Origin: an uncultured Patescibacteria group bacterium
GTDB taxonomy: Bacteria; Patescibacteriota; Minisyncoccia; Phycocordibacterales; UBA918
DNA length: 64,000 bases
Reading direction: 5' to 3'
Assembly (NCBI GenBank): GCA_934699595.1
Contig: CAKUWT010000001.1
Span: 202,832 to 266,831, forward strand
Shown here: positions 27,470 to 27,755 of the stretch, piece by piece
Layout of the letters: every line of letters starts with the position of its first letter
How positions within the stretch are numbered: position 1 is the first letter of the stretch
Translations under genes and position numbers: made by a program
The notes under the pieces: generated by a model
The model's database searches: none
Told to the model about the DNA's origin: nothing
The model's input: only the letters and a program-made list of their open reading frames with translations

Positions 27470-27712
27470 TAAGAAACTCTAAGATAAGTCTATTGAAGTG
27501 AAGACTGCGCTAGCCACCAACTGGCGGCCTCAGCTGAGGCGAGGTTCCTTCTCCTTATTCTCTTCAAAAAATTAAGAGCGGTCGTGTTTTAGCAAAAGCG
27601 CAAACACGATCCGAAAGCTCGGTGGAACCGCGACCTAAGCAAAAAAATGAAAAGCTAGGAACGCCCGGGCAGAAAAATGACTGCGTCATTTTTCTGCCCG
27701 GGCTTTTCTGTT
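27470..27712 (+). promoter_or_regulatory. T-box riboswitch-like leader upstream of thrS
   Basis: GGTGGAACCGCG at 27621-27632 matches the T-box core (AGGGUGGNACCGCG) 12/12. The GCUCGG just 5' of it can pair with the CCGGGC that is also the 5' arm of the downstream terminator, which is the antiterminator/terminator overlap of T-boxes. An ACC-A triplet sits upstream in CCACCAACUGG next to a GCCUCAGCUGAGGC hairpin, a possible Stem I/specifier with a Thr codon. Confidence 0.55.
27663..27712 (+). terminator. Leader terminator of the thrS T-box
   Basis: gcccgggcagaaaaatgac-tgc-gtcatttttctgcccgggc (19-bp perfect stem) followed by ttttctgtt, 44 nt before the thrS ATG. Confidence 0.7.
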
Positions 27713-27755
27713 ATCGGCCACCTTAACAATTTTTATAAATTACAAATACAAAAAT

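Follow-up and report, generated by a model that had tools for sequence, protein, structure and literature searches.

The leader of thrS in this 64,000-nucleotide stretch of DNA (the window) is probably (probability about 0.85) a T-box riboswitch that responds specifically to tRNA-Thr by transcription attenuation and whose decoding domain is non-canonical. A T-box leader controlling thrS in a CPR-type genome had been proposed in the first-pass annotation; comparison with ~74 related leaders supports this reading, and the lineage is CPR/Patescibacteria. On its predicted structure, the compact thrS T-box belongs to a known class, within which it forms a new structural variant, and it is conserved in many CPR/Patescibacteria. 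Evidence comes from the elements themselves, from how they are conserved and covary, from two mutually exclusive folds and from the matches of a codon and a discriminator base to tRNA-Thr; tRNA binding, the distinction between charged and uncharged tRNA and the sense of the regulation would be as in the known T-box family. No published report of T-boxes in CPR was found in the literature searched.

The gap between dnaE and thrS is 353 nt (27403-27755), consistent with the ~350 bp originally given, and the riboswitch element proper (~27496-27709) lies within the interval originally marked (27470-27755). Homologs of the thrS product carry Pfam domains tRNA-synt_2b and HGTP_anticodon and are named threonyl-tRNA synthetase by their sources. 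Features outside the decoding domain are:

27457-27485, + strand: sigma-70-like promoter (TTGACA-17 nt-TAAGAT), by sequence match
27574-27616, + strand: linker purines, Stem III and AA ahead of helix A1
27617-27670, + strand: antiterminator (A1, bulge and A2), with an extended A2 hairpin
27663-27709, + strand: intrinsic terminator, 19-bp hairpin then TTTTCT
27756-29516, + strand: thrS, encoding threonyl-tRNA synthetase (586 aa; ATG at 27756), the putatively regulated gene

From the promoter-like site (27457-27485), transcription would begin a few bases 5′ of the riboswitch, and a similar site is found 7-12 nt 5′ of the conserved 5′ motif in 56/72 related leaders.

The T-box sequence GGTGGAACCGCG is present at 27621-27632. 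Exact GGTGGNACCGCG has a single match in the 64-kb window and none in 100 shuffles of it, while with up to two mismatches allowed 10 matches were found against 9.6 expected, i.e. chance level. The exact core GGUGGAACCGCG is also unique in the window and invariant in related leaders. A1 (GCUCGG; 27617-27622) pairs with CCGGGC (27665-27670) and A2 (GCG; 27630-27632) with CGC (27662-27664), leaving UGGAACC (27623-27629) as a 7-nt bulge between them, the A1/UGGNACC/A2 organization of a T-box antiterminator. Folded without constraints, 27610-27670 has this structure as its energy minimum (−14.9 kcal/mol). Immediately 5′, linker purines (AAGAGCG, including GAGCG of the form RRRxG), a 10-bp Stem III (27580-27589 with 27602-27611; aligned as such by the Rfam T-box model) and AA (with little or no variation among 72 leaders) match the purine string 5′-RRRxG-Stem III-AA-3′ carried by T-box discriminators (PMC7583486, Table 1). 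Stem III is missing from an A+T-rich subgroup of the CPR thrS leaders. The A2 pair beside the bulge is G-C in 50 and G.U in 22 of 72 leaders; a G.U wobble ending A2 is described as sensing the aminoacyl group sterically (PMC7583486), but in the window this pair is G-C (G27630-C27664).

The terminator hairpin (27663-27703) is a perfect 19-bp helix with a 3-nt loop (−36.4 kcal/mol), followed by TTTTCT. Its 5′ arm (27663-27681) includes the whole 3′ strand of A1 plus two bases of A2, making the two structures mutually exclusive, with the antiterminator being the minimum-energy fold before the 3′ arm of the terminator exists. The perfect match to the T-box core, the GCUCGG/CCGGGC pairing, the 19-bp hairpin with T run and the antiterminator/terminator overlap were all described in the first-pass annotation and all hold, the last across the relatives as well. 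The hairpin does lie shortly before thrS, but not by the 44 nt stated: it ends 52 nt, and the T tract ~46-48 nt, before the ATG.

Control at the level of translation or mRNA stability, with the long hairpin as a sequestrator or stabiliser, would be in keeping with the Short Stem I T-boxes so far described, which are translational, and with the interruption of the T tract in 6/74 leaders. However, no Shine-Dalgarno-sequestering platform is seen in the leader, where terminator plus T tract end ~50 nt 5′ of the start codon and the hairpin covers no ribosome-binding site; in the large majority of leaders the hairpin also has a G+C-rich base and a T run after it. We consider this very unlikely, and transcription attenuation remains the preferred reading.

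The same leader was identified 5′ of thrS at 13 protein-anchored CPR loci and on ~60 metagenome contigs. Of 80 genome loci retrieved solely through their ThrRS protein, eight have exact GGUGGAACCGCG 5′ of thrS, with ThrRS identity down to 47-51% among loci with the core, and the core is present in 4/4 close relatives. Related leaders have in common this core, a covarying antiterminator, the terminator overlap and a covarying 6-bp hairpin with a 7-nt loop. Across 72 leaders, 97.0% of cells are paired in the proposed structure, versus 81.3% for shuffles and 29-45% for slid registers, and the covariation score is 0.507, a value reached by 0/500 shuffles, versus 0.199. Both sides have changed at 4/6 pairs of A1, and RNAalifold finds the antiterminator unaided. 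Terminators in the relatives are 17-25 bp and their 5′ arm corresponds to the antiterminator 3′ strand, this sharing being detected by automatic scan in 62/74 leaders and by inspection in the remaining 12. A covariance model of the family gave 55.5 bits for a leader outside the seed (L083) and, in the same scan, had no match 5′ of thrS at the Bacteroidota loci.

These comparative data refute a coincidental core match next to a plain terminator or a leader-peptide attenuator. Such an explanation would be in line with the lack of a significant Rfam match and could draw on a 25-codon GTG orf (27498-27575) containing two Thr codons. However, the Thr codons of this orf do not form a run, covariation in the stems is that of RNA helices, unlike coding sequence, and core, antiterminator and specifier hairpin are conserved, with covariation, in ~74 leaders from divergent organisms, leaving this explanation scarcely credible.

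The T-box decoding domain is a predicted four-way junction in which helix P0 closes around three hairpins, the specifier hairpin (P1) and the small P2 and P3:

27496-27502, + strand: P0 5′ strand (AAGUGAA) of the closing helix, 6/7 pairs with 27558-27564
27503-27507, + strand: J0/1 junction strand GACUG (family consensus GAUUG), from conservation
27508-27526, + strand: P1 specifier hairpin, 6 bp (CGCUAG/CUGGCG) with 7-nt loop CCACCAA (27514-27520)
27516-27519, + strand: proposed specifier ACC (Thr codon) followed by a conserved purine (A), comparative
27527-27540, + strand: P2 hairpin (GCCUC-AGCU-GAGGC), from folding and family comparison
27541-27553, + strand: P3 short hairpin (GAG-GUUCCUU-CUC), the weakest helix
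27554-27557, + strand: J3/0 junction strand CUUA (family consensus CUAA), from conservation
27558-27564, + strand: P0 3′ strand (UUCUCUU), partner of AAGUGAA

The family consensus of P0 is NNNY-AGA / UCU-RNNN. Its two variable outer pairs have changes on both sides and covary (CG 38, UA 25; AU 23, UA 21, GC 8; 72 leaders), and AGA/UCU is swapped on both sides in the window (GAA/UUC), L047 (GCU/AGC) and L083 (AGG/CCU). A different register (AGAUUG with UAAUCU) was assigned initially and then replaced by NNNY-AGA / UCU-RNNN, which is preferred because L083, L047, L060 and the window compensate in it. In the minimum-energy fold of the whole leader the P0 register is shifted (UGAAGA/UCUUCA; 27499-27504 with 27561-27566), and the model-based alignment of P0 in the window carries a one-base MAFFT shift that generates false mismatches. 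The G, A, U and G of J0/1 are invariant or nearly so and J3/0 is nearly invariant (72 leaders); the window strands, GACUG and CUUA, depart from consensus. Reading GAUUG/CUAA as a K-turn or S-turn was rejected, as there is no fit to the general consensus of those motifs.

P1 has changes on both sides at 6/6 pairs, with 98.1% of cells paired, and was predicted independently by RNAalifold. A hairpin of variable sequence directly adjoins P1 in the family, in the position of P2, and a 2-5 bp hairpin is found immediately 5′ of CUAA, in that of P3, for which the minimum-energy fold gives an alternative pairing (GAGG/CCUU). The Rfam T-box model places P3 plus CUAA/CUUA on Stem IIA plus CGUUA. No Stem II S-turn or Stem IIA/B pseudoknot is demonstrable in the leader, P2 and P3 being the hairpins that lie at the equivalent place.

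The P1 loop is CUACCAA in the family and CCACCAA in the window. The metagenome search pattern, AGAGATTG-N66-96-GGTGGNACCGCG, left the loop free to admit other codons and genes, yet ACC occupies loop positions 3-5 in 44/44 thrS-linked leaders, and it is also found in the P1 loop of all 13 protein-anchored leaders, with A or G as the next base. A cognate codon followed by a purine, as expected of a T-box specifier, thus always precedes thrS (44/44). The ACC-A triplet first put forward as Thr specifier is therefore conserved as a codon, but is in a terminal 7-nt loop, not an internal Specifier Loop. No other specificities on the same scaffold were identified by this pattern, its non-thrS matches being either fortuitous, within G+C-rich orfs, or canonical T-boxes (L137, L145 and L164), and a less stringent scan of the entire 1.45 Mb retrieved gave no CPR-type T-box with another codon.

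A candidate ligand is encoded in the same window:

43897-43970, − strand: tRNA-Thr(UGU), discriminator U73

U73 is present in both CPR tRNA-Thr genes compared (window and L127) and is complementary to UGGA of the bulge, answering a comparison suggested at first pass. UGGA is found in all 44 thrS-linked leaders collected with an unconstrained loop; two leaders have UGGG instead. ACC matches anticodon GGU perfectly, while UGU leaves one wobble mismatch; searches of the window, of the 10 kb beyond either end and of all fetched CPR contigs gave no gene for tRNA-Thr(GGU).

A mechanism can be proposed from this arrangement. Transcription would begin just 5′ of 27496 and the first ~70 nt would fold into the four-way junction, closed by P0 and with P2 and P3 as small hairpins, so that P1 shows CC-ACC-AA in an anticodon-loop-shaped 7-nt loop, where the tRNA-Thr anticodon could pair with ACC. 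An uncharged tRNA would pair through its 3′-terminal UCCA with UGGA of the bulge (27623-27626), keeping the antiterminator (27617-27670) intact as polymerase passes; the 19-bp terminator (27663-27703) would therefore not form and thrS would be transcribed. Charged tRNA presumably could not dock, in which case the far more stable terminator would form and transcription would stop at the T tract. Complementary loops are known to pair in anticodon-anticodon complexes and RNA kissing loops, which serve here as an analogy for mechanism only. A 7-nt loop with the signature pyrimidine-U-NNN-purine-A would, by this analogy, present three stacked bases to the tRNA-Thr anticodon.

The discriminator domain could be real and the P1 loop not the specifier, with tRNA identity read elsewhere or the loop CCA pairing in cis with UGG of the bulge, independently of the anticodon. 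The loop ACCA does resemble a tRNA 3′ end, a terminal-loop specifier is without precedent among known transcriptional T-boxes, and the GAUUG and CUAA junction strands, to which no role is assigned, equal the loop in conservation. Nevertheless, ACC is a Thr codon and the gene is thrS every time, the following purine is as in T-box specifiers, and no other conserved Thr codon lies at an unpaired conserved position. Pairing in cis would also be mismatched, with a loop A facing the invariant A of UGGA, a base that U73 of tRNA-Thr does fit. This alternative appears unlikely, and ACC in P1 is retained as the proposed specifier.

P1 also resembles an anticodon stem-loop, with a 7-nt loop starting pyrimidine-U and ending AA. 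Together with the identity of the gene, this recalls the E. coli thrS operator, a hairpin like the tRNA anticodon arm to which ThrRS binds, and the leader might likewise be a mimic of the tRNA-Thr anticodon arm through which thrS mRNA is repressed by its own product. Recognition of the anticodon by ThrRS involves bases G35 and U36. However, the loop holds the codon ACC in every leader, not an anticodon for Thr (GGU, UGU or CGU) as in an E. coli-type operator, and the rest of the leader consists of a full T-box discriminator, predicted to bind the tRNA 3′ end, plus terminator. Such an operator is hardly to be expected here.

Compared with canonical T-boxes (RF00230; B. subtilis tyrS, thrS and glyQS), the CPR leader shares the T-box sequence, the A1/UGGNACC/A2 antiterminator with competing intrinsic terminator, RRRxG-Stem III-AA, a cognate codon followed by a purine, complementarity of the N of UGGN to the discriminator base and an aminoacyl-tRNA synthetase gene as target. 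It differs in having no long Stem I (K-turn, Specifier Loop with S-turn, and platform of AG bulge plus distal loop), in the predicted specifier being in a terminal 7-nt loop, in the four-way junction made by P0 and in an A2 terminal pair that is mostly G-C. A canonical Stem I with K-turn, internal Specifier Loop and S-turn could not be folded from the leader, contrary to what had been anticipated, and there is no region corresponding to the elbow-docking double T-loop (AG bulge plus distal loop), P1 being only 6 bp with a 7-nt loop. Canonical T-boxes caught by the same search pattern (L145 and L164) do carry AGAGA ... GGUGNAA.

The RF00230 model, proposed initially as a check, scored the window leader at 13.8 bits (E 0.4-0.8) and six typical members of the family at 21.9-35.4 bits, all below the gathering score of 93, and deleted nearly all of Stem I (85 model positions versus 2 bases). 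Treating lack of an RF00230 hit and of a foldable Stem I as grounds for dismissal, as the first-pass annotation had suggested, would wrongly reject this T-box because the score is subthreshold and Stem I is lacking. Standard annotation is blind to these elements because Rfam gives them 14-35 bits against 93. No other Rfam 15 family matches the leader, and a search of the whole window at gathering thresholds returned tRNA only; microRNA matches on the terminator hairpin in E-value mode were attributed to chance.

The translational ileS T-boxes of Actinobacteria (Mycobacterium and Nocardia; PDB 6UFG and 6UFM; intermediate or ‘ultrashort’ Stem I) resemble the CPR leader in having no elbow platform and a short specifier-bearing element (specifier placement compared via reviews). 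The Rfam alignment of P3 plus CUAA with Stem IIA plus CGUUA may be a further likeness. However, these regulate ileS by sequestering the Shine-Dalgarno sequence, while the CPR leader precedes thrS and has an intrinsic terminator instead. The solved ileS T-box has a K-turn in Stem I and a long Stem II with an S-turn, stacked coaxially on the IIA/B pseudoknot, none of which is evident in the CPR leader.

The CPR/Patescibacteria T-box may tentatively be viewed as a distinct architectural class, although we put the case for this at slightly below even: a miniature element (~105-175 nt) with a cloverleaf-like four-way junction, in which the anticodon would be read by loop-loop contact with an anticodon-stem-loop mimic, with no elbow contact and apparently for thrS only. 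A double T-loop platform that docks the tRNA elbow is generally required in transcriptional T-boxes according to a 2020 review (PMC7583486), and this element challenges the need for a long Stem I and elbow platform in that group. If the proposed reading is true, a long Stem I platform is not required for co-transcriptional tRNA sensing, tRNA-sensing T-box regulation extends to the Candidate Phyla Radiation and the leader is the smallest natural T-box scaffold. Which T-box class arose first is not known (PMC7583486), and a small scaffold bears on T-box evolution as well as on the engineering of tRNA-responsive switches. The organisms carrying it have reduced genomes and obtain amino acids from their hosts, and threonyl-tRNA charging is apparently still monitored directly. 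Some members without Stem III span only ~105-110 nt, counted from P0 through the antiterminator, and could provide a small natural system for minimal tRNA recognition and charge sensing.

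The T-box core and the overlapping antiterminator and terminator folds that the first-pass annotation had read upstream of thrS are confirmed in the window sequence. They lie in the 353 nt that separate a dnaE-like ORF from thrS, within a leader whose parts are listed here together with the adjacent genes and the window tRNA gene (window positions):

24211-27402, dnaE-like ORF
27457-27485, promoter-like site, TTGACA-17-TAAGAT
27496-502 / 27558-64, closing helix P0, AAGUGAA / UUCUCUU
27503-07, junction strand J0/1, GACUG
27508-13 / 27521-26, stem of specifier hairpin P1, CGCUAG / CUGGCG
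27514-20, P1 loop, CCACCAA
27527-40, hairpin P2
27541-53, hairpin P3
27554-57, junction strand J3/0, CUUA
27580-89 / 27602-11, Stem III, 10 bp
27617-22 / 27665-70, antiterminator helix A1, GCUCGG / CCGGGC
27621-27632, T-box core, GGTGGAACCGCG
27630-32 / 27662-64, antiterminator helix A2, GCG / CGC
27663-27703, terminator, perfect 19-bp hairpin followed by TTTTCT, -36.4 kcal/mol
27756-29516, thrS, 586 aa
43897-43970 (-), tRNA-Thr(UGU), U73, no encoded CCA

GGTGGNACCGCG has a single exact match in the 64 kb window and none in 100 shuffles, and core matches with up to two mismatches occur in the window at the chance rate. UGGAACC forms an unpaired 7-nt bulge between A1 and A2, unconstrained folding of 27610-27670 gives this antiterminator as the minimum-energy structure (-14.9 kcal/mol), and the antiterminator 3′ strand shares bases with the 5′ arm of the terminator. 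Translational control is unlikely, as ~50 nt separate the end of the terminator hairpin from the start codon and a T tract follows the hairpin. Leader-peptide attenuation is unsupported, the sole leader ORF having 25 codons with two Thr and no run. A further, near-perfect long hairpin immediately 3′ of the dnaE stop (27414-27459 (+); GACCAGGUAGUCAA...UUGAUUACCUGGUC) has no T tract, and it abuts or overlaps the promoter-like site at its -35 hexamer; it may serve to terminate dnaE or to bind a protein.

The Rfam check proposed in the first-pass annotation fails. At gathering thresholds the whole window matched tRNA only, with no T-box match, and the Rfam T-box model RF00230, which the first-pass annotation had looked to together with a foldable Stem I, reached 13.8 bits under permissive settings (gathering score 93; E 0.4-0.8), aligning confidently over Stem III and the antiterminator only, with nearly all of Stem I deleted. 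Taken alone, this evidence would lead to rejection of the finding, a rejection that is overturned by related sequences. RF00230 scores typical members of the resulting family at 21.9-35.4 bits; they match nothing else in Rfam 15.

ThrRS homologues are labelled Parcubacteria, Kaiserbacteria or Patescibacteria. A ThrRS-alignment scan with one genome per species yielded 80 thrS loci, eight of which carry the exact core at a distance of 100-330 nt before thrS. The labels of these eight are Parcubacteria, Paceibacteria, Minisyncoccia, Falkowbacteria and Saccharibacteria, and their ThrRS identity goes as low as 47-51%. In four further close relatives, retrieved by exact protein, the core is present and dnaE-thrS synteny is conserved (4/4). 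A metagenome scan, whose pattern was fixed at the 5′ octamer and the T-box core alone, returned 120 stretches, ~60 of which contain the same leader; a recognisable ThrRS ORF lies downstream in 44 of the first 80. The remaining stretches were chance matches within G+C-rich ORFs and three canonical T-boxes.

From 5′ to 3′, the family leader comprises P0 (NNNY-AGA / UCU-RNNN), a junction strand GAUUG (invariant in the family), P1 (a 6-bp stem closing the 7-nt loop CUACCAA), a P2 hairpin of variable sequence directly adjoining P1, the short hairpin P3, a strand CUAA (likewise invariant), the 3′ strand of P0, a purine-rich linker (AAAGNG), an optional Stem III, AA followed by A1, the UGGAACC bulge and A2, and a terminator of 17-25 bp whose 5′ arm starts with the 3′ strands of A2 and A1. 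The terminator was detected by automatic scan in 62 of 74 leaders and on inspection in the other 12, six of which have an interrupted T tract. The window leader is a divergent member with all helices intact. The P0 consensus AGA/UCU is replaced by GAA/UUC in the window and by GCU/AGC and AGG/CCU in two other leaders (L047 and L083), and these two-sided changes fix the register of P0; in the whole-leader thermodynamic fold the domain is also closed by a helix, in a shifted register.

Across 72 aligned leaders, standard pairs occupy 97.0% of P0, P1, A1 and A2 cells, as against 81.3% in column shuffles and 29-45% with partners shifted by 1-3 columns. The covariation score (0.507 vs 0.199) was reached in none of 500 shuffles, and both sides change in every P1 pair (6/6), in 4/6 A1 pairs and in the two outer P0 pairs that vary. 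Most of these sequences were selected by pattern, which makes the 5′ octamer and core columns uninformative, but the covarying helices were unconstrained by it. RNAalifold, run without an input structure, recovered both P1, its 7-nt loop included, and the bulged antiterminator. A coincidental core match, or a plain terminator, is excluded by this conservation and covariation. A family covariance model scored 55.7 bits on the window, partly by construction since the window is a seed member, and 55.5 bits on L083, which is outside the seed. Weak matches (16-26 bits) immediately precede thrS in Kerfeldbacteria, Saccharimonadia and three other Candidate Phyla Radiation (CPR) loci, and in at least four of the five (L014, L016, L032, L036) a hairpin loop again contains ACC; in the Bacteroidota loci from that scan the model gave no match upstream of thrS.

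The metagenome pattern placed no constraint on the P1 loop, and ACC, a threonine codon, occupies loop positions 3-5 in 44/44 thrS-linked metagenome leaders, followed in every one by a purine. The loop is CUACCAA in 37, with variants CCACCAA, CAACCAA, UUACCAA, CUACCGA and CUACCAC. It fits the anticodon-loop signature (pyrimidine, U, three bases, purine, A), and ACC would therefore be displayed like an anticodon. Complementary anticodon loops pair with each other, and by analogy tRNA-Thr could pair through its GGU anticodon with the P1-loop ACC. An E. coli-type operator binding ThrRS would need an anticodon-like loop, whereas P1 carries the codon. The bulge has UGGA in all 44 leaders, and its match to the tRNA-Thr discriminator, a check proposed in the first-pass annotation, holds in the two CPR genes available: U73 is complementary in the window gene and in that of L127 (UGU anticodon, CCA encoded). 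Contact in cis between the P1-loop CCA and the bulge UGG is possible in principle, but its A would face the invariant A of UGGA, whereas U73 of tRNA-Thr fits. The tRNA-Thr(UGU) gene is the only tRNA gene in the window, and no tRNA-Thr(GGU) gene occurs in the window or within 10 kb on either side. UGU against ACC would give a U:C mismatch at the wobble position, which need not exclude binding, because a Staphylococcus glyS T-box is reported to be responsive to both the GCC and the UCC isoacceptor (PMC4574755).

Compared with the T-box motifs listed in a 2020 review (PMC7583486, Table 1), the element has in common with canonical T-boxes the A1 and A2 helices, the 7-nt bulge in which NCCA pairs with the first four bases, ACC at the bulge 3′ end, a specifier, and the RRRxG-Stem III-AA purine string (GAGCG ... 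AA in the window), and lacks the K-turn, the internal Specifier Loop with S-turn and the interdigitated double T-loop docking the tRNA elbow. The bulge-adjacent A2 pair (window 27630/27664; alignment columns 172/220) also deviates: it is G-C in 50/72 leaders, including the window, and G.U in 22/72, a G.U wobble at this position being described as the primary steric sensor of the aminoacyl group (PMC7583486). The Rfam model places P3 and CUAA on Stem IIA and CGUUA; neither a Stem II S-turn nor a IIA/B pseudoknot could be shown in family leaders. The linker (window 27565-27579; also L159, L098 and L130) often reads NAAU-GA(A)G, its AAU complementary to AUU of GAUUG, and from sequence a Stem IIB-like pseudoknot between them is conceivable; the window's changes in the junction strand (GACUG) are uncompensated in the linker. 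As a general requirement, transcriptional T-boxes are described as having a long Stem I that bears the elbow platform, and intermediate and 'ultrashort' Stem I belong to translational, mostly actinobacterial T-boxes (PMC7583486); the solved ileS structure has a Stem I with K-turn and a long S-turn Stem II coaxial on the IIA/B pseudoknot. The element joins a very short specifier hairpin to an intrinsic terminator, and its closing helix is absent from both classes.

The discriminator half is that of a T-box on every sequence and structure criterion tested except the A2-end G-C pair; the decoding half fails the T-box Stem I criteria and appears to do the same job. The thrS leader is filed as a structurally new variant of the known T-box class, from which family we infer tRNA binding, charge sensing and direction of regulation. 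No full-text report of T-boxes in the CPR, Patescibacteria, Parcubacteria or Saccharibacteria was found, with subscription literature partly covered and an earlier description possible. The TBDB translational set comes from Actinobacteria only, and its transcriptional set was built with RF00230, which cannot detect the CPR thrS leaders.

Several loci show further variation. An A+T-rich family subgroup (L035, 2310-2418; L136, L091 and others) has no Stem III at all and spans only ~105-110 nt from P0 to the antiterminator end. Two divergent leaders upstream of thrS in other CPR lineages have, respectively, a CUACCAA hairpin with the degenerate bulge ACGGAACC (L016, 2217-2331) and GGGUGGAACC with no obvious ACC hairpin (L043, 2374-2473). 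In L014 a T-box-like leader (1714-1823) lies ~680 nt upstream of thrS with a separate-looking ORF between, an arrangement in which it may control a two-gene unit. In one relative, L084, the dnaE preceding thrS (5036-9568) encodes 1510 aa with intein and LAGLIDADG domains, an insertion absent from the 1063-aa window dnaE. In two of the canonical T-boxes (L145, L164), distal Stem I reads AGAGA-UUGY-[GGUGNAA loop]-RCAAU-UA and contains the octamer AGAGAUUG that opens the CPR element, which could reflect either shared ancestry or chance. L159 carries two thrS-type leaders in tandem (563-725 and ~1490-1690), both of them ending in a terminator. Between the two stands an inserted ORF of ~170-220 aa that has a separate promoter-like site, an arrangement resembling a leader duplicated around an insertion.
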